A stretch of DNA of 59,400 nucleotides from a virus (taxonomy: Duplodnaviria; Caudoviricetes). This document shows, one piece after another, positions 5,275-47,437 of this stretch (position 1 is its first letter; every line of letters starts with the position of its first letter). The translations under genes and the position numbers were made by a program. The stretch is taken from positions 1 through 59,400 of IMG/VR virus record IMGVR_UViG_3300032046_000028, one strand, 5' to 3'. Below the pieces are notes generated by a model. The model was not told where the DNA came from, did not search any database, and saw only the letters and a program-made list of their open reading frames with translations.

Positions 5275-5658
5275 CTACTCGTCTGCAACAGTGTTCTCCT
5301 CCTCTTCAAACACGCCTTCTTCTTCAGAACAATGAATTTTATTATGACATTTCCAACAGAGAATCTGCAGATTTTTGAGTTCATTGTTGAAACAGTTCAA
5401 GTCTTTATGGTGAACAGTAATGTGATATTCAGAATTACATTGTTGGCAACGAGTTAAGCAAACATTGTTTTGCCGTAAAATTTCCCGATAATAAGAAGCG
5501 TTAGGACGGTATCTATTTCTAGGACGTTTAGTAGTTCGTCCTCTAGGAAGAATAAGCCGTTTCGACTTTGGCCACTTAATTTTGGCCTTATCTCCCTCTT
5601 CTGCTATCTTTGCAGTTATAAGCTTTTTCATATCTTCATGCAACAGCATAATAGTCAC
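5275..5658 (-). CDS. HNH endonuclease
   Basis: CQQC…VHHKD…NNELKNLQILCWKCH. Confidence 0.85.
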   Translation of the reverse strand: MTIMLLHEDMKKLITAKIAEEGDKAKIKWPKSKRLILPRGRTTKRPRNRYRPNASYYREILRQNNVCLTRCQQCNSEYHITVHHKDLNCFNNELKNLQILCWKCHNKIHCSEEEGVFEEEENTVADE

Positions 5659-16787: not shown

Positions 16788-17309
16788 TCAACTCCTTATC
16801 GTGAAGTCCGCGAGCGACCAAGATCGCGGTTCTTTCGATTCTAACTGGTCTTCAGGGATCGTTTTGCAGATCGTTGTCCACCCAAGATTTACCGCTGAAA
16901 TAACTGGATAATTTCCAATTTTGATCGCGGCTACAAAATCAAGGGTCGGTATGAAACGTGGATTTTCAATAAGCTGTTTTGTTTTCATGTCGAAGAAAGC
17001 GTAAACTATGTAGTCAGCTCTGCTAGTCCAGACCCATCCTGGGATTTCTTTTTCTCGTTTGCTCCACACTTCAGCGGCATAGTCAGACCATTTTTTGCCT
17101 CTAACTTTCTCGTCTATTGAATAGAGAGAGAGTCTCGGGACATCTTGGAGTTTTAAGGCCAGAAACTTGTCTATGCCCATATGCTGAAAATCGAAGATTT
17201 GAGAAACGTCAAGAATACCGATTAGGTTTTGACCGAAAACTGTTCTATAGTAACTGTCTAGGTATGGTGAACATGCTTTTTCAAGCTTTAATGAATCCTC
17301 AAACACCAT
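16788..17309 (-). CDS. PD-(D/E)XK-like nuclease downstream of MT-A70
   Basis: GID…IDEK…AEVWS…GW…ADYIVY. Confidence 0.65.
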   Translation of the reverse strand: MVFEDSLKLEKACSPYLDSYYRTVFGQNLIGILDVSQIFDFQHMGIDKFLALKLQDVPRLSLYSIDEKVRGKKWSDYAAEVWSKREKEIPGWVWTSRADYIVYAFFDMKTKQLIENPRFIPTLDFVAAIKIGNYPVISAVNLGWTTICKTIPEDQLESKEPRSWSLADFTIRS

Positions 17310-18390
17310 GACCCCAAGCCTCCCAATTTTCCCGTTTCTCGCTGGCAAAAAGTTCCAGAAATAAATGGCCAGAATACATGGTTTCAACTATCTTGTAAGC
17401 TTCGTCGGGTTTTTGACTGTGCTCTCTTCTCGGTGAAGATAATACTGAGGAAACCCGTTTATCTTCAGACGGTGGCGAAAACTCGCCTTTTATGCCGACA
17501 AGCAAAAGTTCATGCTGACCTCTGAAATAGTAGCCAGTGCCAAACTTGTCCTTGATCCAAACCAAGTTCGTTTTGTAAGTGAACCCCCACGCCTTCATTA
17601 CTTGTAAAGCGTCTTCTAACTTCGGGTTTGTTGCCCACAAAAACAGAACGGCATCATCAGCGAAAGGAACTTCCAGTTTGCATATTTCGTCAGTCGTCAT
17701 GGTCGAATAGTGCATGTCTGGACTGCCACGCAAACGCAAAGCATATTCCCAAGGCGGATCAGCAACAACAACGTCAAACGTGCCCTTGGGAAGCGGCGGA
17801 GTTGCACAGTCAATATGCTGAACCATTTTGTACGCATAGGCTATGCTAGTCTGGTCTTTTCGACATTTTGCTTTAAGTTTTTCAGAACCTTTCTCAATGA
17901 TTGTTAGAGCCCGCTGAAAAGTTGTGGAACTCAAACCGATCTGACGAGCAACAACATCACGAGCCCTACCCGAATCTTCCGTTACCTTCGGTTCATTTGA
18001 ACCAGAAGTCCCAGAAGTTAAATCCGTTCTAGTCCCTTGTCTTTGTTTTGCACGCTCAGCCTCAATTTCCATAAGAAGCAAACCGAACTCGGCCTTCTCA
18101 AAATCCGTCAACTGACGCCGACGAAGATTCGCCTCAATCACAAACTTCTTTTCAAGCAACTTATCCGAAAAAACCCGCTTCTCAACCTTAGGTTCAATCC
18201 CTAGCTCTTGACAAACCCGATACCTATGGTGACCGTCAAGAATCTCACTCATTTCATTAATAACAATCGGAAAATGCTGGCCCTCCGTCTGAATTGAAAG
18301 TTTCAACGCTTCAAACTCTGCCTTAGAAAGCCTAGGCAGAATCGCGTCATACGCCGCATTTACTTTCAGGGCAAGTTCGACTTTGCTCAG
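17299..18390 (-). CDS. ParB-N domain fused to MT-A70 adenine methyltransferase
   Basis: ILDGHHRY, NLRRRQL; ADPPW, LFLWAT, HELLL, HSQKP, LELFA. Frame open to a CTG at 18390. Confidence 0.9.
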   Translation of the reverse strand: MSKVELALKVNAAYDAILPRLSKAEFEALKLSIQTEGQHFPIVINEMSEILDGHHRYRVCQELGIEPKVEKRVFSDKLLEKKFVIEANLRRRQLTDFEKAEFGLLLMEIEAERAKQRQGTRTDLTSGTSGSNEPKVTEDSGRARDVVARQIGLSSTTFQRALTIIEKGSEKLKAKCRKDQTSIAYAYKMVQHIDCATPPLPKGTFDVVVADPPWEYALRLRGSPDMHYSTMTTDEICKLEVPFADDAVLFLWATNPKLEDALQVMKAWGFTYKTNLVWIKDKFGTGYYFRGQHELLLVGIKGEFSPPSEDKRVSSVLSSPRREHSQKPDEAYKIVETMYSGHLFLELFASEKRENWEAWGHGV

Positions 18391-29802: not shown

Positions 29803-31226
29803 GTCTTTACCTTGCTGAACCACTTCAAAAACCATTGAATCACATCTTCTTGGTAGAGTTTATAGTCATAGTATGCACCGAATCCCTTGTTTGCCTGAAC
29901 ATAATATTTACCTACATTTGGATTAGGGAATTCTTTTCGGGCCTCAGCCAACATTTCAATAATGTCCGCACAAAATATCGTGGGATATTCCTGCAATTCT
30001 GATTTATCACAGTCAGGAAGGTCTTCTCGTATCCGTTTTTTGAATTTGCCCTCTGATGCTGTACTCATAATAGTCTCCAAAGGCATCTGCCTTTTGAATG
30101 GTTCAGGCGTAGGCGGTTCCGCACCCGCAGGTCTAGTTCTTATTGTTTTATCTCCAGCCTTGAATTTATCTTCATTCATATAGACAGTCTCCAAAGTACA
30201 TATGCCTCACAGAAGTATTTATGTCCTTCCACAGTTTCAAACCCTCACGTAAACACTGGTTTCTTCCATTTACCATCAGCAAAATCAACCGCCGCTTTCT
30301 CAGTGCAAAACTCAGAATAAGATTGGCCTTCACCAAGAAACATGCAGCCCCGCGCAACACGACCCGCATGAACCCATTTGTCACCGCTTTTCATGATTAT
30401 TTCAGTGCCTTCCTTCATGTCAGGCATAACGTAAACTACATCAGCATGTTTAAACCAGTAATTACCCTTACGGCTATAACAGACGACAACATGAACCTGA
30501 CGCCAAACAATGCCGTCTTTCCATTCAATAAGAACTTTCATGTTTCCACCGCATATTTGACGCTGAATTGTCCATGCTGATGCTCCGCAAACCCTAACTT
30601 ACACAAATGCCCCAAAGCATCACGGACCAAGGCAAATGATGCTTTCATGCCTTTCGCAAAAAGCCGTGTCCAAACAGTTTCCACGTTCAAGCCGCCGTTG
30701 CCCTCTTCTAATAGGCACTCAAGCAATTCACTTTCAAGCGGCAAACTTTCCCTAGCATACTTCCAAGCATAACGAATGACAAACTTGAAATCTTCCCGGT
30801 CAACTTTAGCTAAGAGGTCTTGCCAATTACCAGATGTGACTTGTGCTAGTACAGATTCAGCCAAAATAAAATGTTGAGGATCCTTAATGACTTGCCTAAG
30901 TTGTCTCCAGCCCCGTTTGCTAGCTAGGAAAGGCCGTTCTCCCAAAAGAACCGTGAAACATGCGTGACTGTCAGGCTCAGTTAAAACTCTAGCAAGGGCA
31001 GACTCTAACAATTCAGGACTTTCACCCTTATACTCGAACATTCGGGTCATGCTAGAATCTTTAATTTGTAGTTTCATACGTTTCCCTTCAAAGGCAAGGT
31101 CTGAATCTTCTGGCCATTCTTCAATGTAAACTCGAACCAAACATAATCTTCACCCATGAAATTTACGCTGATCTCAACCGCTTCTTGCGGTCCGTCCTTG
31201 AACCATCCTTTTATCCAACATTTCAT
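29799..31226 (-). other. Leftward hypothetical ORFs 29799..~30180, 30245..30541, 30538..31077 (C-terminal wHTH-like) and 31074..31226
   Basis: ATGA-coupled chain; VRDALGHLCKLGF…QFSV. Confidence 0.55.
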
Positions 31227-31251: not shown

Positions 31252-31720
31252 GGACATTAAGAAGTTTTGCAGGTGCACCGGCCCAACGTGTCAGCACACC
31301 TTAAACCGCATGTGCCAACCCTTCGAAGATAGCCTGTTTAATGCCTGAATCAAATGTTGGGCCAGAAACCTAACCGCCTTAGTTGTTCAGTTGAGAATGT
31401 TGCTTATGCCCAGAACAGTCCAGAAAAAGCACAGTCCGAAACCGTTGAAAACTGATGCTTCAAACGCTGAGTATAGCTTCAACTGTTGGCCAAACCAATG
31501 CAAAGATTCACGTTACATGAGAGCGCGGTTAACCTGTAAGCCCAGGTTGAACAAACTCTAATGCAAAGCAAACCTGACAGCTTTAGACCCAATGCAAGCT
31601 TTAGCAACACAAGCACAAGGTTGTTTCGTTAGCGGTTTCTCATATGCGACTGTTCCAGTATTACACAACACCCGCTTATTGCACCTGCAAACTCTACCCA
31701 TATTTCACCTCTTAATGCCC
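31252..31720 (-). ncRNA. Candidate large structured non-coding RNA (~470 nt)
   Basis: Nested long-range stems: 13 bp (2 GU) 31252-64/31708-20, perfect 12 bp 31266-77/31680-91, 8 bp 31280-87/31356-63, 7 bp 31383-89/31548-54, plus hairpins; no long ORF. Confidence 0.65.
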
Positions 31721-31768
31721 TATTCCCAAAAGGGAATGTCGTCTTAATTTTCAAAGACTCAAAGGGGC

Positions 31769-31945
31769 TTATTCCTGCATCATATTCTTGAGAGATTCGC
31801 CGCACCCTTGCTTATCAAGGTCAAGGGCCAACCTTTTAATGAAAAAGGCCGCCGTAATCGTCCGTTCTTCCTTGACAAGAACTAAGATTTGGCGCAACCT
31901 TTTCGAGAGGGGTTCTACATTCCAAAGTTTTTCTTTTCCATTCAT
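31769..31945 (-). CDS. Hypothetical 58-aa protein (not in track)
   Basis: MNGKEKLWNVEPLSKRLRQILV…; starts just downstream of the hammerhead. Confidence 0.5.
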   Translation of the reverse strand: MNGKEKLWNVEPLSKRLRQILVLVKEERTITAAFFIKRLALDLDKQGCGESLKNMMQE

Positions 31946-31950
31946 GTTTA

Positions 31951-32014
31951 TTCAGCCCGACCCCACAATAAAAAGGGGTTTCGACCTTGCAGGGTCATCA
32001 TCAGGGGTTCTAAA
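31951..32014 (-). ncRNA. Hammerhead ribozyme, type I
   Basis: UUUAG-AA-CCC CUGAUGA U GACC(CUGCAA)GGUC GAAA CCCC(10-nt loop)GGGG UC GGG CUGAA: full core, three stems, GUC cleavage triplet. Confidence 0.85.
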
Positions 32015-32276
32015 CTTTCTTTACCATCGTTGTCGTCTTCGCATACAATTCTCGAACTTCATAGCCTTCCAAGATTTTCTGGTCAACCTGACCTAAATCC
32101 ACACAAGCAACGCTAACAATCTTTGCAGATTTCTCTGAAATCTCATCTATGTCTAAGCTTTTACAATACGGACAAACGTGCAATTCTAAAGGCTCATTAG
32201 ACTCGATCGAAACGGTTGTCGTGTGAATCGCTGGATAAAGAAAAGTCTTTCCACACTTCAAACATTCAAACTTCAT
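32010..32276 (-). CDS. Zinc-ribbon protein (paralog of 15857..16342)
   Basis: MKFECLKC…HVCPYC…EGYEVRELYAK; GGAGGTGA SD. Confidence 0.75.
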   Translation of the reverse strand: MKFECLKCGKTFLYPAIHTTTVSIESNEPLELHVCPYCKSLDIDEISEKSAKIVSVACVDLGQVDQKILEGYEVRELYAKTTTMVKKV

Positions 32277-32437
32277 GCTGTCACCTCCAACTCTTTCAAA
32301 GTAAATACTTGAGTATGATGATCATTGTCGCAGTCAACAAACACGAATATGCCGTTGGGCTGGCAGTAAACAAATTTGACAGTGCCAAACCAAACCGTGC
32401 CACAGCTCTTCCAGCTAACACGCGTTCCCTTCTGCAC
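32273..32437 (-). CDS. Small beta-barrel (SH3/KOW-like) protein (54 aa, not in track)
   Basis: GAGGTGA SD + GTG; KGTRVSW…GTVKFV…ELEV. Confidence 0.55.
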   Translation of the reverse strand: MQKGTRVSWKSCGTVWFGTVKFVYCQPNGIFVFVDCDNDHHTQVFTLKELEVTA

Positions 32438-33029
32438 ATCACTTCACCTCAATATGTTCCCACATGGCCACAAGCAAAACAGATAAACCGCTTGCCGCCC
32501 TTAGGCCCTCCATAGTTCATGTGGGCCTTACATTGTGGGCATACTTGTTGAGTCATCATGTCTTACACCTTTACAAGTATGCATACACTTACCAAGTATA
32601 TAAGGCTTGTGGAAATAGATAACACTTACCAATATAACACAACATACACAAGTAACACACACCTAACAGAGTCACAACAAACCCGCAAAAACCCGCCAAC
32701 AAAAACTTTTTCCCTGGTGCCAATACAACAATAAAGAAACACACTATAGGCAATAACATAACATAGACCAATCCTTGGCCAACAAGCCCACACCTCAATA
32801 AGTCTACTCCGACCTCGAATCAACCAACAACACCACAAACAACAAAACACCCAAAATTATCCATCACAAACCAACACCCGTATACAAAAACGTATACCAA
32901 CAACCACAAAAGTCGTGGCAGCTCGTACACTAAGAGTCCATTATGGCTAGGCTGGTTAGGTGTGTGTGCGGTCAGGCGTATATTTGGTGTACGCAATATA
33001 TTTAAGCAGACAAAGGTATACGTACGGAC

Positions 33030-40419: not shown

Positions 40420-40628
40420 TGTTTAAACTGCCCTAACCGTGATACACTTACGGCATTACTTAAGCCTTCCCATGAAAGGTTATCCCACGTCAAGTTAACA
40501 GAACCATGTTCCATAAGTCTTAAATAGGAACGTTGTACCTCTCTATAAGTTGTATTTATCCGCTGGCGTTCGGTCCGAACGTCAGAACAAAAGTTTTATT
40601 TTTGCCAATTCATTATAGAGGACTCTTA

Positions 40629-41210
40629 ATGTCACAATTATTAGGGCGTGCAGTTGTTCTTATAGACAACGGATACCTCTCGGCAATACTCAGAGATGAG
40701 TTTGGACAAGCAAGAATAGACTATCTGAAACTATCTGAGATAGTGTGTAAAGGTTATCATCGACTTCGAACCTATGTCTATGATTGCTTACCATACCAAG
40801 CTGACCCGCCTACGTTTGAACAACAGCAACTTTATTCTGGCAAAATCAAGTTCTTCAACGCACTCTCCAAATTGCCTTCTTTTGAAATAAGATTTGGGAA
40901 ACAAAGACCTAGAGCTGGCGGCTTTATTCAGAAAGGTGTAGATGTGCTGTTAACGGTTGACTTGACGCGACTTAGTTCTAAGAGTCAAATACAGAAAGCC
41001 TTTCTCATAGCGGGAGATGGTGATTATGTTCCAGCGGTTAAAACAGCGAAAGATGAAGGGGTCTCGATAAAACTGCATTACTCAGGTACTTTTCAGACAA
41101 CGCCAGATGGACATACAATGCCGAAGTATAGTAATGAGCTTTGGCAAAATTGTGATGAGCGAGAGGAAATTAGCATCGCATTGATAGACCAATGCAGATT
41201 CTTACCCTAA
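40629..41210 (+). CDS. NYN-domain (LabA/DUF88) ribonuclease
   Basis: IDNGY, QKGVDV, AGDGDYVP, SNEL…CD. Confidence 0.9.
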   Translation: MSQLLGRAVVLIDNGYLSAILRDEFGQARIDYLKLSEIVCKGYHRLRTYVYDCLPYQADPPTFEQQQLYSGKIKFFNALSKLPSFEIRFGKQRPRAGGFIQKGVDVLLTVDLTRLSSKSQIQKAFLIAGDGDYVPAVKTAKDEGVSIKLHYSGTFQTTPDGHTMPKYSNELWQNCDEREEISIALIDQCRFLP

Positions 41211-41715: not shown

Positions 41716-42648
41716 ATGAAAGTGTTGAAGGGCATAATTAAGAGGTTGGGGAGGGCTTTGCTTCGTAAACCGTTGAATAGGCTTATTGGAAATGTTGAAG
41801 AAGACAAACTCAGGTTCAGAATTGATTCTTTAGAACATAATTTGCAGACTTTAAACTTGCAGAAACTCCACGCATTATACCAGTCTGATGATGTTAGTCA
41901 AAGAACGTTTTTGCAAGATAAAGAATTGAAAGTGTACAGTCAAAACGGAGAAGACGGCTTACTGCTTTACCTGTTCAGCCAAATAGGAAGTACAAACAAA
42001 TCTTTTGTAGAGTTCGGCGTGGAAGATGGAAAAGAATGCAACACGGCTAACTTAAGCATTAATTTTGGGTGGAATGGGTTGCTGATGGATTGTGACTGGA
42101 AACAGGTTGTTAAAGCGAAGCATTACTACAAGAACTTGCCATCGGTTAAGCCTTGCCAAGTTAAGGTTATTCAATGTTTTGTGACGGCCGAAAACATAAA
42201 CAAAGTGTTACTGGATAACGGGATGAAAGGCACTATTGACTTGTTGTCGATTGACATTGACGGAAACGATTACTGGATTTGGAAAGCGATTTCTGCTGTT
42301 GATCCGCGTGTGGTTGTGATTGAATATAATGCCTCGTTAGATGTTGACAAGGCATGGACGGTAGAGTATGATCCTGAATTTGTGCGGTATGAGAAGCATC
42401 GGAGTGGGTGTTATCATGGTGCGTCTTTGAAGGCTTTAGCGAAGCTTGCAGATTCTAAAGGCTATGGCCTCGTTGGTTGCGAAAGTAGTGGTGCAAACGC
42501 CTTCTTTGTCAAGAAGGACTTGTTGCGCAGTTTGCGTAATGTTTCTCTTGAGGATGCTTATTATCCGCATTTTCGACGGTTGAAAAAAGAAAGCACTCGG
42601 CAACAGTTTGAACGTGTTAGACATTTGAATTGGGTAGATGTGGGATGA
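41716..42648 (+). CDS. FkbM-like SAM methyltransferase (surface-glycan type)
   Basis: YSQNGEDG, FVEFG…NT, LSIDIDGNDY, PRVVVIEYN, NAFFV. Confidence 0.85.
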   Translation: MKVLKGIIKRLGRALLRKPLNRLIGNVEEDKLRFRIDSLEHNLQTLNLQKLHALYQSDDVSQRTFLQDKELKVYSQNGEDGLLLYLFSQIGSTNKSFVEFGVEDGKECNTANLSINFGWNGLLMDCDWKQVVKAKHYYKNLPSVKPCQVKVIQCFVTAENINKVLLDNGMKGTIDLLSIDIDGNDYWIWKAISAVDPRVVVIEYNASLDVDKAWTVEYDPEFVRYEKHRSGCYHGASLKALAKLADSKGYGLVGCESSGANAFFVKKDLLRSLRNVSLEDAYYPHFRRLKKESTRQQFERVRHLNWVDVG

Positions 42649-45600
42649 TTTGAAGTTTAAAAAAGCTTTAGGGTTCACAGTCTGCACTCTGGTTTTGCTT
42701 AGTTTTCTAGGGTCGTTGCCCTTCTTTGTTGTGGAGGCTGTTGGTGAAAACTGGCTTACTGGTTATGCTTACCGCAGAAGCCATATAGTCACAAATTCTA
42801 CTGGTGCAGGAACAAACTATCAGGTTCGCATCATTGTCAAGAACGGTACGACGGAAGGCAACTCTACAACTTACGTGACTAACGATACAATAACGGTGAA
42901 CAATAAGGTTAGGGCAGATTTTGGCGATGTAAACTGGACTGATGATGACGGTTCAACCTGTCTTAGTTATTGGAACGAAAGCACTGTCAGTGGCGTAAGC
43001 GCTACTTTCTGGGTTAAAATCAATGATGACTGCAGCAGCGTAAACAACACAATCTATATGTATTATGGAAACTCTTCTATCACAAGCGCATCCAGCATTT
43101 CTAACACGGGCATTTACGGCGACGATTTTCCTTCTGGCTCTTCAGTTTCATGGTCAAATTACAGCAACGTTTTAGCTACTTCCAATGCTACGTATGCGCA
43201 TTCAGGCACTTATTCCATGAAAGTAACTTCAAGCGCATCAGGCGGAGGTTCTACATATCACACATTCACAAATCAAACTGCCAAAGTTTCAATAATGTAT
43301 TATTCTTATGTTACCGCGGCTGGAAACCGCGTTGCTGGCCTTCAAGATTTCACGGGAAGCGTTGACAATTTTTGGGTGGCTCAAGGAAATTCTGCTACGG
43401 ATGTTCATTGGCAAACTTACAGTTTTGCAGGTTGGCTTGAATTTGGACATTACACGCAAAACATATGGAACAAAGTTGAAATCATCCTTGACATAGCAAC
43501 GGATTACTGCCTTAACCTTCTAGTCAACGAAACAAGTTATGCTACAAATGAACAGTTCAAAAATGTTTTGTCTTCCTTGGGAACCTACGTTTTCATGATA
43601 AATACTGCTAGTCAAACACAATATATTGACGATTTCTTCTTACGAAAATATGTCAGCACAGAACCCGCACACGGAGGGTGGGGAACTGAAGAGTCTTCGG
43701 CTGTAGCAACGGTTCCACCTGTGATTCAGGATTTCTGGATTAACAGCACTTGGGCTGGTCAATCATGTCTGTTTTCTTTTAATGTTACAGATTCGATTGC
43801 ATTGGTGAATGCTACTCTGCAAACAAACTGCACTGGCAGTGACAGCAATGGCACTGGTTCTGTGAGTTTAAGTGGAACAGTTGCGTGGGCAAACTTTACC
43901 GTGACCTTGCCAGTTAATCCTTCTGTTGTTCAGTTTCAGTTTTGGGTCTGGAACAACAACAATACGATTTATGCAACTACAGGAGTCAGAATCTTCAGGG
44001 TGTATTCGTTTAATTCTCCTTCCACTATACTTTATTTGAGAAGTGATGAACATACAGTCAATACTGTTAGTGGGTACATTCTAAATTCGACTCAATCGTC
44101 TTCTGGTTGGGATGTGGAAGCGGGCGGAACAACTCCTTGGGCATGGGGCATAAAAGTGTATGCCATTGCTGAAGGAAATCAAGAATTGGTAGCTCTTACA
44201 TCTGGTATAATAGCTAATGTTTCAGCTACTTCTAATGGTTATTACTCAACTTCTGGCTATGTGAACAATTATTCTTTTGCTAATTTTGTGGCTCTTTCAG
44301 TTTGGGTTTACGGAGATTCTGGTGCGGTAGCATATACGGAAAGGGCCAAGTTTATTCTTCCTGCAAGTCCAACGACGCAAAATCTTACCAGCACGAATTG
44401 GAATGTTACTTATAATTTTCAAAACAGCGGGCAAGAACTTTGGTTTGGAAGCTCTGACTATAATACTCGTATCGAGAACGTGTCGTTAAACTATTGGAAT
44501 ACGCCGTTCAATTCTCTGAGTGATGCCATAAATGCTATAGAAAGTGCTAACAGGTGGGGAAGCGTTGAAACATACGCGAGCGTTGTTTTGAATAATGCAC
44601 CCATTTCTACTTTGTCAACAATGATTGACAACTATGCTTTAGGCACAAGTTATAACGAAACGTATGTGTACGCAGACAATACCACAGCTACAGGATGGAC
44701 AAACTCTGGACTTTCATGTGATAATCTGACTACAACAAGTGCTTCTACAAGTTGGAGTTCAGCTGCTCCGACCCATTCTGCATATTTGACTTTGAATTTT
44801 ACAAATACTATTAGAGGAAATAAAATTAACTATTGGGTAACTAGGTCATCAACTACCGTAACTCTGATGTATATTGATATTGCTAATGCCACGGGTTCAT
44901 GGGTGAATGTTTATGGTAGTTCTTTCAGCGTTTCTGCTTATTACAATGTTTCAATTTCGTTAAGCATTTACACCGCAATGAGATTTAGCTTCACTCATAC
45001 AGGCACCTCTAGCAGAACAGCCTATGCTTATGAAATTCGTGCCGTAAACGCTTCTTTCAGTTCCGCAGGTGGTGATTGGGAGAACGCTTTAAAATGGAGT
45101 GTTATTTGTAACAAACTAAATATTACTCGTCAACAGGCGATTAAATATGCTTTAGATAACTTTTCGATGGCTGGCAGTTTGCCGAAGACGGGAAATGATG
45201 GAGCGGATTACTTTTGTTCAGAATATGGCAAATGGGAACTGTATGGTTTTTGGTATGCAAACAATAGTTGGGCAAGTGCGAACATGACCAAATGGAATAT
45301 CACTGCTGCATATAACCAATTCAACACTTCAAATTATAATTTAGGTATGCCCGCTTTCAGAGTATACGCAAATGGAACCGCTATGTCATATTCTAACAGA
45401 TTCTATGATGAAGTCGCATCCACTATAGAGAGTTATGTCATTTTTGATAAACTCCTTAACGTGTCAGGAGCGTTAAATGATGCACTTCATTGGTGGGACT
45501 ATCTTAATGCTAATCATTGGAGCAATAATTACGGTGGTTATTATAGATATAACCTAGTTTGGAACGAACCAGCATTTGAAACGTCAGCAGCTTTCTTTCT

Positions 45601-47437
45601 TAAAATCATTAGCACCTTGAAATATTACTATCCAACTCTAGGAAATTGGAGCCGTATACTAACTGATATTGGCAATAGGTTTCTATCTTCTGAATGGAAC
45701 AGCAAACAATGGATTGATAGTATACACAATTCTACGACTTACTCTGTCATTCATATGAATGCTGGCAATCAACAGCGAAGGTTAGAAAGCACTATAGCAG
45801 CTTGGCAAGCACTCTTTGGCGTATACATGCAACTAAATTCTACGTACCAAAATAACATAAAAGACATGTTAAGTGGCAACGATATGACAGAACCCGCGTG
45901 GGCTTTACTGTTAAGACCAGATACTAACTTCTATAACAATTCAGACAACATATTCAGTTGGTTTTCATATGTCCCAGGAGCTTCCCAGTTCGTGGAAGAT
46001 TACACTGCCACAGCATATGCGGAAATATTGCTATTCATGCAAGGGATAGTGCCAGTTAATACTTCTATTGCTTTTCCACTTGAAGAATTGGGATATTTGT
46101 ATATATATGATGTTGATCCACAAATTTTGCAGTTGCAACTAAATGCTTCTTATCGTATAGTCAATGTGCCTGTAACAAGTTCAGGGGCTCTTACCTTTCT
46201 ATACGGTGAATCGCCAGTAACTTACAATTTTAATCAAAGTGGGGTTTGGACTGTAACTTTTACAGAGTCGTGGAATAATTTTGCAAGTGTGACATACAAA
46301 AACTCTCTTCCAACCAACGTCATATACTTCTCACAAATCTATCCGCCAACAGTAAACGTTTATGGCGTAAACTCTACTCTCCCTGGAAGTTCAGCATTGT
46401 TCTATGTTAGTTGGCAATCAAACGGAGGTTACACACTTTCAGGTTTTAAATTTGGAACAAATAACACGGGAATATGGATTAATCAAACATGGAATAATGA
46501 TGCTGGTTTAGGATGGGGAACAGGTTTTGCTTGGGGAAACATAACCCAAACTCTCAACACTACAGAGGGTGTGGTTATACAATGGCAAGAATGGGCAAAC
46601 GATTCTAGTGGGAACTGGGGTGCAAGCGGATTCTTTAATATTTCAACAATAAAATTGCCTACTTACTCAAACGTTGCCACAAACAGCACCGTATGGGCTA
46701 CGCCTTGCAACTTCAGCATTATCATAAATGACGAAACGCTCCTTCATCCAAACGGACAATACATTTTCGGAAGCAACAACACAGGCATATTCACAAACCA
46801 GACAACCATCAACTTCACATCAACGCCTCAATCGATAAGCATTGTTCAAACTTTAAATTGGACCAACAGCAACGCAACTTCGCCAGAAATTATCCAGTTT
46901 GAATGGTGGTTCTCTGATAATGCACAAAACTGGAATAGTACGGGTCTTCAAACTTTAACACTTTACTGGCCATTATCTGCTGGCTGGAACAACGTAACAC
47001 TCTTTTCCTTTGATGTTGGATTCACTTTAGCAGGAATCAACGCAAGCCTCACCTATGACAGCATTAACTGGGAATATATTGTCTACCAAAATTCATCAGT
47101 CACAGCACAATACGTTTTTTGTTTAACCATGTCATACAACGGCATCGTACCAATCTATCAGACAACAGGAATTCTTCTCATATTCACTGGTGCCGCTGGA
47201 AACTGGACGCATACTTACCCATTTCAAGGCGGCGATTATGGCAGCGACCCAACTCGGTTTGACTTGAATAATGATGGAAAAGTAGACATGAAAGACATTG
47301 CCTTAGAAATCCGACATTTAGGCGCAGTTATTGGCGACTCCAACTATTCTTCTGTATATGATATTTACGTTGACGGCAAAATCAACATGAAAGACTTAGC
47401 AATGTTAATCAAATGTTTTGGACAGTCCTCAGGCTAG
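42638..47437 (+). CDS. 1599-aa secreted surface protein: DUF2341-like N-terminus, C-terminal dockerin
   Basis: Signal/TM; WLTGYAYRR…NYQV…DFGDV…FWVK…YMYYGN; DLNNDGKVDMKDI…DIYVDGKINMKDL; dense N-x-S/T. Confidence 0.8.
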   Translation: MWDDLKFKKALGFTVCTLVLLSFLGSLPFFVVEAVGENWLTGYAYRRSHIVTNSTGAGTNYQVRIIVKNGTTEGNSTTYVTNDTITVNNKVRADFGDVNWTDDDGSTCLSYWNESTVSGVSATFWVKINDDCSSVNNTIYMYYGNSSITSASSISNTGIYGDDFPSGSSVSWSNYSNVLATSNATYAHSGTYSMKVTSSASGGGSTYHTFTNQTAKVSIMYYSYVTAAGNRVAGLQDFTGSVDNFWVAQGNSATDVHWQTYSFAGWLEFGHYTQNIWNKVEIILDIATDYCLNLLVNETSYATNEQFKNVLSSLGTYVFMINTASQTQYIDDFFLRKYVSTEPAHGGWGTEESSAVATVPPVIQDFWINSTWAGQSCLFSFNVTDSIALVNATLQTNCTGSDSNGTGSVSLSGTVAWANFTVTLPVNPSVVQFQFWVWNNNNTIYATTGVRIFRVYSFNSPSTILYLRSDEHTVNTVSGYILNSTQSSSGWDVEAGGTTPWAWGIKVYAIAEGNQELVALTSGIIANVSATSNGYYSTSGYVNNYSFANFVALSVWVYGDSGAVAYTERAKFILPASPTTQNLTSTNWNVTYNFQNSGQELWFGSSDYNTRIENVSLNYWNTPFNSLSDAINAIESANRWGSVETYASVVLNNAPISTLSTMIDNYALGTSYNETYVYADNTTATGWTNSGLSCDNLTTTSASTSWSSAAPTHSAYLTLNFTNTIRGNKINYWVTRSSTTVTLMYIDIANATGSWVNVYGSSFSVSAYYNVSISLSIYTAMRFSFTHTGTSSRTAYAYEIRAVNASFSSAGGDWENALKWSVICNKLNITRQQAIKYALDNFSMAGSLPKTGNDGADYFCSEYGKWELYGFWYANNSWASANMTKWNITAAYNQFNTSNYNLGMPAFRVYANGTAMSYSNRFYDEVASTIESYVIFDKLLNVSGALNDALHWWDYLNANHWSNNYGGYYRYNLVWNEPAFETSAAFFLKIISTLKYYYPTLGNWSRILTDIGNRFLSSEWNSKQWIDSIHNSTTYSVIHMNAGNQQRRLESTIAAWQALFGVYMQLNSTYQNNIKDMLSGNDMTEPAWALLLRPDTNFYNNSDNIFSWFSYVPGASQFVEDYTATAYAEILLFMQGIVPVNTSIAFPLEELGYLYIYDVDPQILQLQLNASYRIVNVPVTSSGALTFLYGESPVTYNFNQSGVWTVTFTESWNNFASVTYKNSLPTNVIYFSQIYPPTVNVYGVNSTLPGSSALFYVSWQSNGGYTLSGFKFGTNNTGIWINQTWNNDAGLGWGTGFAWGNITQTLNTTEGVVIQWQEWANDSSGNWGASGFFNISTIKLPTYSNVATNSTVWATPCNFSIIINDETLLHPNGQYIFGSNNTGIFTNQTTINFTSTPQSISIVQTLNWTNSNATSPEIIQFEWWFSDNAQNWNSTGLQTLTLYWPLSAGWNNVTLFSFDVGFTLAGINASLTYDSINWEYIVYQNSSVTAQYVFCLTMSYNGIVPIYQTTGILLIFTGAAGNWTHTYPFQGGDYGSDPTRFDLNNDGKVDMKDIALEIRHLGAVIGDSNYSSVYDIYVDGKINMKDLAMLIKCFGQSSG

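Follow-up and report, generated by a model that had tools for sequence, protein, structure and literature searches.

Does the short spacer between two small leftward genes of this virus encode a self-cleaving ribozyme, and if so, what would the cut be for? Hammerhead ribozymes of bacteria and viruses have been catalogued by the thousand, and to our knowledge few of them have been given a concrete job. The window, i.e. the whole stretch of DNA analyzed here, is a complete IMG/VR record; it measures 59,400 bp and bears direct terminal repeats. The candidate ribozyme, designated HH1, is encoded on its minus strand. We conclude, with a probability of about 0.7, that HH1 is a genuine self-cleaving type I hammerhead within a leftward operon and that the job of such ribozymes in this viral lineage is to make the 5' end of a large RNA.

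The anatomy of HH1 was examined base by base (Table 1). A sequence-only reading had proposed a core, three stems with a bulged stem I, a GUC triplet, a cut site, and a flanking stop codon and ATG, and each of these was recovered at the expected base when the minus strand was read. All 13 canonical core positions are intact, among them C3, U4, G5, A6, N7, G8, and A9, with G12, A13, and A14. The closing pairs G10.1-C11.1 (G31996-C31983) and A15.1-U16.1 (A31979-U31960) are present, and C31959 gives the GUC triplet. Stems II and III are capped by loops and stem I is open, with 3 bp, an internal loop, and 5 bp. Hammerheads require a tertiary contact of stem I with the stem II loop to be active at physiological Mg2+; the internal loop of stem I and the 6-nt loop II are candidate elements of such a contact, and both are present. 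The stop codon of the upstream 88-aa ORF (TAG, 32012-32010) falls within stem I, and the start codon of the 58-aa ORF (ATG, 31945-31943) begins 13 nt past the predicted cut.

Table 1. Features of the hammerhead locus and of the corresponding loci in three related viruses (positions refer to the window unless a relative is named).
Feature	Position	Strand	Details and basis
HH1, complete type I hammerhead	31946..32015	-	sequence, descriptor scan, R1 model
HH1 distal stem I	32015-32011 with 31950-31946	-	GUUUA with UAAAC; sequence
HH1 stem I internal loop		-	GAA / CUGAA; sequence
HH1 proximal stem I, 3 bp	32007-32005 with 31958-31956	-	CCC with GGG; sequence
HH1 core	32004-31998	-	CUGAUGA; sequence
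HH1 extra U after A9	31997	-	sequence
HH1 stem II, 4 bp, with loop	31996-31983	-	GACC/GGUC, loop CUGCAA (6 nt); sequence
HH1 GAA	31982-31980	-	sequence
HH1 stem III, 5 bp, with 10-nt loop	31979-31960	-	ACCCC/GGGGU; sequence
HH1 C17	31959	-	predicted cut between 31959 and 31958
HH1 (window), compared elements			stem II GACC; stem III ACCCC; position 17 C
L114 hammerhead, compared elements			stem II GUCCC; stem III ACCAC; position 17 C
L115 hammerhead, compared elements			stem II GCCUA; stem III ACCACA; position 17 C
L117 hammerhead, compared elements			stem II GCUAAG; stem III AUACCAAG; position 17 A
Relic hammerhead	31717..31768	-	degenerate; sequence, MAFFT, R1
Upstream 88-aa ORF	32010..32276	-	CxxC...CxxC, zinc-ribbon-like; ORF list
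58-aa ORF	31769..31945	-	ORF list
Structured RNA, ~470 nt, ORF-free	31252..31720	-	nhmmer envelope, RNAalifold, terminal helices
Structured RNA in L114	2559-3040	-	conserved blocks
Structured RNA in L115	4759-5241	-	conserved blocks
Structured RNA in L117	5237-5716	-	conserved blocks
Downstream cistrons	30538..31226	-	small ORF (ATG 31226, GGGAGG before it) and 200-aa protein; ORF list

HH1 was the single match to a type I descriptor when both strands of the whole window were scanned. As estimated from 300 first-order Markov versions of the window, chance would yield 0.037 motifs per genome with stems as long as those of HH1 or longer, and 0.24 loose hammerhead motifs. A covariance model (R1) was trained on 10 type I hammerheads from unrelated IMG/VR viruses with the window excluded. 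R1 scored HH1 at 43.3 bits (E = 3.4e-12) over 31951-32012, the runner-up in the window reaching 10.1 bits; the score is partly circular, because the training loci had been picked by a pattern from the window's own core. The search with hammerhead models that had been suggested from the sequence gave a divided answer. R1, which represents viral hammerheads with an inserted U, recovered the motif. Rfam returned no match to HH1 at the gathering score and none at E ≤ 10 within 31800-32150, and RF00163 (gathering score 34 bits) matched nowhere in the whole record. Judged from its sequence, HH1 is a hammerhead by anatomy and covariation, not via a curated Rfam model. A blastn comparison of HH1 with cultured phages yielded no match. 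Among sequencing runs containing this stretch no RNA run was found; the single run was a DNA library of a sediment metagenome, possibly the source sample itself.

Two further matches in the window were rejected. The R1 runner-up (17617-17668, minus strand) was without stems II and III and was taken as chance. A scan for types II and III gave one weak match, type III-like and inside an ORF at 5327 (minus strand), which has stems of 3 bp and was likewise taken as chance.

The core of HH1 carries one extra U after A9, which had been described as a known natural variant, and the literature agrees with this as far as the accessible parts of two papers go. In the CChMVd hammerhead, cleavage was 3-4 fold faster with a U inserted between A9 and G10.1 (PMC3705267), and in the hammerheads of Penelope-like elements a nucleotide is conserved at the same core position (PMC4209133). 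According to the same excerpts, these viroid and eukaryotic retroelement ribozymes share with HH1 an extra nucleotide at that position, where U is tolerated and has raised the rate, and differ from it in type and context.

The same core was found in at least 113 IMG/VR loci with a 21-base pattern consisting of CTGATGATGACC, a gap of 4-10 bases, and GGTCGAAAC. It reads CUGAUGA-U-GACC...GGUC-GAAAC and is identical to that of HH1 including the inserted U. By a loose rule, the three-way junction was completed in 112 of the 115 matches listed: a script placed 72 in type I and 40 in type III and left 3 in neither, and a few of its assignments were wrong by eye. The sequences of stems I and III vary among these loci and their pairing is kept. 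All 35 unique type I members among the matches listed have an ORF of at least 50 aa that begins no more than 72 nt past the cut (median 23 nt), where distances of 0-5 nt reflect mechanical start-codon calls within stem I. HH1 resembles this subclass in its 21-base core, its intercistronic place, and the type I topology found in 72 of the 115 matches listed. It differs in its unrelated flanks, its shorter stem II (4 bp), and its bulged stem I; most members of the subclass also have an obvious ribosome-binding site 20-40 nt past the cut. In many type I members of the subclass, such as L003, L028, and L031, stem I has GUGGG as its 3' strand, with AGCCA and then CCCAC behind it, so that the freed 5' end could form a hairpin of its own just before the ribosome-binding site.

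Related viruses were collected by a terminase search of IMG/VR, which returned 48 loci. Together with the terminase matches in genomes, 52 loci were available, and in 26 of them the sequence ahead of the terminase gene extends for 3 kb or more. The closest of these, L114, L115, and L117 (terminase identity 84, 83, and 79%), each carry a complete type I hammerhead, which lies 2.0-2.7 kb upstream of the terminase gene and is encoded on the opposite strand. With the window, they make up a family of only four genomes. For the other 23 loci with upstream DNA, neither the descriptor nor R1 revealed a hammerhead, and only matches with 3-bp stems were seen, which were taken as chance. Low-quality descriptor matches with 3-bp stems and long loops (L115 at 9608 and 3551, L128, L130, L149, L150, L154, L163, and L165) were treated in the same way.

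As evident from Table 1, the stems of the four hammerheads differ in sequence. Stems II and III are nevertheless fully paired in all of them. Changes on both sides with pairing kept occurred at 3 of the 4 shared positions of stem II and at 3 of the 5 shared positions of stem III, in a comparison that sets HH1 beside ribozymes that are positional orthologs of the relic described below, not of HH1. The assignment of HH1 to type I, proposed from the sequence, is thus strengthened both by the R1 score and by hammerheads with compensatory changes in stems II and III in the same operon of all three close relatives. The extra U is absent from these three. R1 scored the L114 and L115 hammerheads at 30.7 and 23.4 bits, respectively, and missed that of L117 (core CUGACGA), which was identified by the descriptor only. 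In Rfam, L114 gave sub-threshold scores of 19.9 bits with Hammerhead_1 (RF00163) and 24.7 bits with RAGATH-1-hammerhead. Application of R1 to the whole records of the relatives and to two archaeal MAGs returned only the L114 site and one 17-bit match (L234), which was rejected as being without stems II and III. The DNA flanking the ribozymes of the window and the relatives was not alignable by blastn.

What, then, is conserved beside these ribozymes? In L114, L115, and L117, the base after the hammerhead cut opens an ORF-free stretch of 480-490 nt that shares blocks with positions 31720-31252 of the window. The 3' end of this RNA lies 10-15 nt ahead of the ribosome-binding site of the next gene. 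Terminal helices of the window RNA were located at 31720-31707 with 31265-31252 and at 31691-31680 with 31277-31266. With nhmmer, the RNA was detected in four genomes only among all loci compared, including 58 metagenome pattern matches, and no Rfam family matched it. A pattern scan of viral contigs for the RNA returned two known contigs and L167, which was high-GC coding sequence by eye and was taken as chance; the same kind of scan of metagenome contigs returned the 58 loci, none of which was confirmed by nhmmer.

RNAalifold predicted 64 pairs for the RNA, 31 of them with compensatory change. On this structure, which was derived from the same four sequences as those scored, 91% of cells pair and the covariation score is 0.62; shuffled controls scored 0.33, with 0 of 500 reaching the real value, and sliding the partners lowered the score to 0.09-0.19. 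The existence of a large structured RNA downstream of HH1, which had been proposed from the sequence, was in this way borne out by conservation, by covariation, and by pair counts against shuffled and slid controls. A long-range helix differs in sequence between genomes (UUUGCAGGUGCA, UUGCAGAGAG, and ACACGGGGAA), and each version has its perfect complement about 420 nt away. The best partner of the first 16 nt after the cut was found at nt ~455-485 of the RNA in all four genomes. Shuffled 5' ends paired as well in 0, 14, 5, and 5 of 200 trials in the four genomes, and this terminal pairing of the first 16 nt was also present in all four full-length MFE folds. Thus, the cut coincides with the first base of the terminal helix of the RNA. 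In the window, the corresponding first nucleotide is the base after the cut position of the relic. Within the large RNA, no special partner was found for the 5' end that HH1 would make; 42 of 200 shuffles were as good. By comparison of the four sequences, the conserved element accompanying the hammerheads in this lineage is the large RNA and not the 58-aa ORF.

The relic (31768-31717) was recognized when MAFFT aligned it over the hammerheads of L114, L115, and L117. It keeps the stop codon followed by GCCC, a stem I of GCCC/GGGC, a stem II of GUCUU/AAGAC (5 bp), a stem III of AUUCCC/GGGAAU (6 bp), and, just ahead of GGGC, an A at position 17. The core reads CUUUGA plus GAC, so that G5, A6, one core position, and A14 are lost, and a full-length alignment to R1 gave 8.7 bits only. 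Judging from the alignment, the relic is the positional ortholog of the relatives' ribozyme with its catalytic core lost. Without these core positions it should not cleave by the established core requirements of hammerheads. HH1 represents an additional copy, of the U-insertion subtype, and lies 238 nt upstream of the relic with the 58-aa ORF between the two; by its intact core it would be the only copy in the window still able to cut. Since the positional counterpart of the relatives' ribozymes is the relic and not HH1, their conservation supports HH1 only indirectly.

The genes around HH1 gave additional information on the operon. The 88-aa ORF had a weak zf-ChsH2 match below the cut-off and no relatives in viral contigs. 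A word-indexed search with the 58-aa ORF matched only the ORF itself; an exhaustive search added two relatives that match over the full length (59 and 62 aa; 41-43% identity; E = 2e-4 and 5e-4, respectively) and share the motif ITAA..IK.LALDLDK.G.GE.L. Both homologs are singletons on short contigs, and no further members of the family were found in viral or genome contigs. The other 13 matches of the exhaustive search were long multi-stretch proteins and were regarded as spurious. The GC content of the 58-aa ORF by codon position (0.49/0.29/0.51) is similar to that of the terminase and portal genes. From these sequence features, the ORF is probably a real gene for a small protein.

Farther downstream, the 200-aa protein is syntenic in 3 of 3 relatives with 38-45% identity (tblastn). 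No Pfam match was obtained for it; by eye, its conserved C terminus looked like a winged-helix DNA-binding domain. A search with the alignment of this protein found no relatives in viral contigs beyond the three known contigs and none in metagenome contigs. On the other side of HH1, the minus strand of 32449-32603 contains a TATA-like element, TTATATA (32603-32597), followed by AGGTG and a 36-codon CxxC...CxxC ORF (ATG 32559). We take TTATATA to be a plausible archaeal-type promoter and the 36-codon ORF to be the first cistron of the hammerhead operon. The neighboring 32640-32900 region is ORF-poor and very G+T-rich on the minus strand, with runs such as GTTGTTGGTTG, and lies where the leftward small-gene operon and the rightward packaging genes diverge.

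These features suggest the following course of events. The leftward operon would be transcribed from near 32603-32597. Its RNA would run through the small zinc-ribbon genes and HH1 to the 58-aa ORF and the relic, and then on through the large RNA to the regulator-like genes. During transcription, the hairpins of stems II and III would form first; closure of stem I would then allow HH1 to cut co-transcriptionally after C31959. The upstream 88-aa message would end in the compact ribozyme with a 2',3'-cyclic phosphate. The downstream RNA would start with a 5'-OH and a 13-nt leader and continue with the 58-aa ORF, the dead relic, the ~470-nt RNA, and the next genes. The order of these elements, i.e. 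a short leader, the 58-aa ORF, and the large RNA downstream of the cut, had been read correctly from the sequence. In the relatives, the cut would free the large RNA with a 5'-OH, and the former stem I strand (GGGY...) would close its terminal helix. In the window, the large RNA would keep a 238-nt 5' extension encoding the 58-aa protein.

A more speculative extension, which we put forward tentatively and consider doubtful, is that the leader is gated by the ribozyme, in that the cut and the subsequent closure of the terminal helix control translation of the downstream regulator genes, and that the window shows turnover of the ribozyme. The freed stem I strand (GGGY...AGAGG) would find its partner close to the 3' end of the RNA, in a segment that contains CCUC. 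The 3' partner of the terminal helix does contain an anti-Shine-Dalgarno-like CCUC, and when folded without the 5' end, this segment is predicted to pair with the ribosome-binding site of the next gene. Since the segment may alternate between the terminal helix and the ribosome-binding site, cleavage and folding would control downstream translation. As for the turnover, the original ribozyme would have died and a new one would have been recruited upstream.

A role upstream of the cut would reverse the emphasis. HH1 would then mainly make the 3' end of the 88-aa message, with the folded ribozyme and its cyclic phosphate acting as a protective cap, and the downstream product would be incidental or degraded. 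Such a role is in keeping with the type I topology, which leaves nearly the whole ribozyme on the 5' product, and with the stop codon of the upstream ORF, which lies inside stem I or 1-2 nt before it in all four genomes. The 35 unique type I members of the subclass among the matches listed point the same way, in that each has an upstream ORF ending no more than 21 nt from the core. We consider such a role unlikely, because the upstream ORFs (88, 150, 149, and about 29 aa) are unrelated from one of the four genomes to the next, whereas the downstream content is conserved, and because the cut site of the relatives is nt 1 of the terminal helix of the large RNA.

HH1 might also be inactive or barely active, a second copy in decay like the relic that is demonstrably decayed in the same genome. 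The one-base insertion in the core, the proximal stem I of only 3 bp, and the missing Rfam match could be read in this way. So could the predicted folding of a 71-81-nt stretch, in which the ribozyme fold (-16.3 kcal/mol) falls 3.4 kcal/mol short of the MFE structure (-19.7 kcal/mol), a hairpin that pairs the 5' strand and loop of stem II with the 3' strand of stem III. However, the MFE folds of the relatives are not all ribozyme-like either, that of L115 being different. At least 113 IMG/VR loci share the U insertion and keep stems I and III paired although the stem sequences vary, and a U at the same place raised the rate of cleavage by the CChMVd hammerhead (PMC3705267, accessible part). 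With the 13 canonical core positions, both closing pairs, and the GUC triplet all intact, an inactive HH1 appears quite improbable. Least of all do we expect a chance motif in an intergenic spacer. The loose version of the motif is expected at 0.24 per genome, and spurious matches do occur elsewhere in the window (the 10.1-bit match at 17617-17668 and the type III-like match at 5327). A motif as good as HH1 is expected at only 0.037 per genome, and HH1 is sense-oriented and placed exactly between a stop and a start codon. It shares its 21-base core with a large family of viral hammerheads, and the same operon holds a hammerhead in 3 of 3 close relatives and a relic in the same genome, so that coincidence is very hard to credit. 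A self-cleaving HH1 in a lineage whose hammerheads make the 5' end of the large RNA is the reading that we prefer.

Hammerheads of this kind have precedents. As early as 2011, hammerheads had been reported from archaea and from the spacers between phage genes (PMC3088659). According to the available part of that paper, the hammerhead of the haloarchaeal viruses HF1 and HF2, HHphage, belongs to an early polycistronic transcript and precedes a start codon by 13 nt, and the 5' end of the HF2 transcript was mapped no more than 3 nt from the hammerhead cut. An excerpt of a second paper mentions the HF1/HF2 hammerhead as conserved (PMC7230728). Hammerheads are thus already known in archaeal viruses, and HH1 belongs to a known type. 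As far as partial sources allow the comparison, HH1 resembles the type I hammerheads of phages and prophages (RF00163) in its core, open stem I, GUC triplet, and intergenic viral place; it differs from them in the extra U between A9 and G10.1 and in scoring below the reportable level. With HHphage, which was compared by its description in the accessible text, HH1 shares an archaeal tailed virus as its probable context and the distance of 13 nt to the start codon. An insertion near C3 and stem I distinguishes HHphage, whose activity is rescued by high salt and which precedes an early helicase gene. HH1 has no insertion near C3, carries its U after A9, and is followed by the 58-aa ORF, so that of these details only the 13-nt spacing is common to both, and the hammerheads of its lineage precede a large non-coding RNA instead of a helicase gene. 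The hosts also differ, being halophiles for HF1 and HF2 and probably Bathyarchaeia-like sediment archaea for the virus studied here.

In the viral VIPR systems, as described in the accessible part of the report, hammerheads are interspersed among non-coding vrRNAs with 9-16 YNNGG repeats (10.64898/2026.04.26.720920). Both in these arrays and in the lineage of HH1, viral hammerheads would cut non-coding RNAs from a longer transcript. The large RNA was rejected as a candidate vrRNA: it contains no YNNGG repeats, and the one GGYNN run of the window consists of 4 units inside an ORF. These four exact units (GGCAC GGTTT GGTTT GGCAC; 32384-32401, minus strand) lie in a 54-aa ORF, and about 0.1 such runs are expected by chance.

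A term search of a study on Bathyarchaeia viruses (10.1101/2023.08.24.554615) gave no mention of ribozymes. In the literature on hammerhead ribozymes and archaeal viruses, represented mostly by titles and abstracts, no description of the lineage of HH1 was found. The new parts of the find are the coupling of the hammerhead to this particular large RNA and the pair of live and dead hammerheads in one genome. As the cut of the relatives' ribozymes coincides with the first base of a large covarying RNA, the hammerhead as a maker of 5' ends becomes directly testable. The adjacent live and dead copies present ribozyme turnover in place. Furthermore, hammerheads of archaeal viruses are extended beyond the haloviruses HF1 and HF2 to a probable Bathyarchaeia-linked lineage.

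The link to archaea was deduced from the proteins of the virus. The window encodes a terminase large subunit, a portal protein, an XPB/Rad25-like helicase, proteins with ParB-N and MT-A70 domains, an HNH endonuclease, and an NYN-domain protein. No terminase of a cultured phage was more than 28% identical. When one genome per GTDB species was searched, the terminase had two close matches only (56-61% identity), both on Bathyarchaeia MAG contigs, and the next matches were from Planctomycetota (35-36%). For the helicase, three close genome matches were recovered at 53-70% identity, located on MAG contigs of Nanoarchaeia, Nitrosopumilus, and Bathyarchaeota. The portal protein had no genome match. 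The matched archaeal MAG contigs may be binned viral DNA, and the host link is therefore indirect. The earlier designation as an archaeal virus accordingly stands as probable, since the closest genome matches of terminase and helicase are all on archaeal MAG contigs, and it stands by this indirect route. Sediment archaea that are Bathyarchaeia-like are the probable hosts on the same indirect, sequence-based grounds.

Three further genes of the window deserve mention. The minus strand of 17299-18306 encodes a methyltransferase in which ParB-N and MT-A70 are fused, and the NYN-domain protein, which is RNase-like, is encoded at 40533-41210 (plus strand). In the structural half of the window, a 1599-aa protein (42638-47437, plus strand) combines DUF2341 with a C-terminal dockerin type I domain, which is unusual for a probably archaeal virus.
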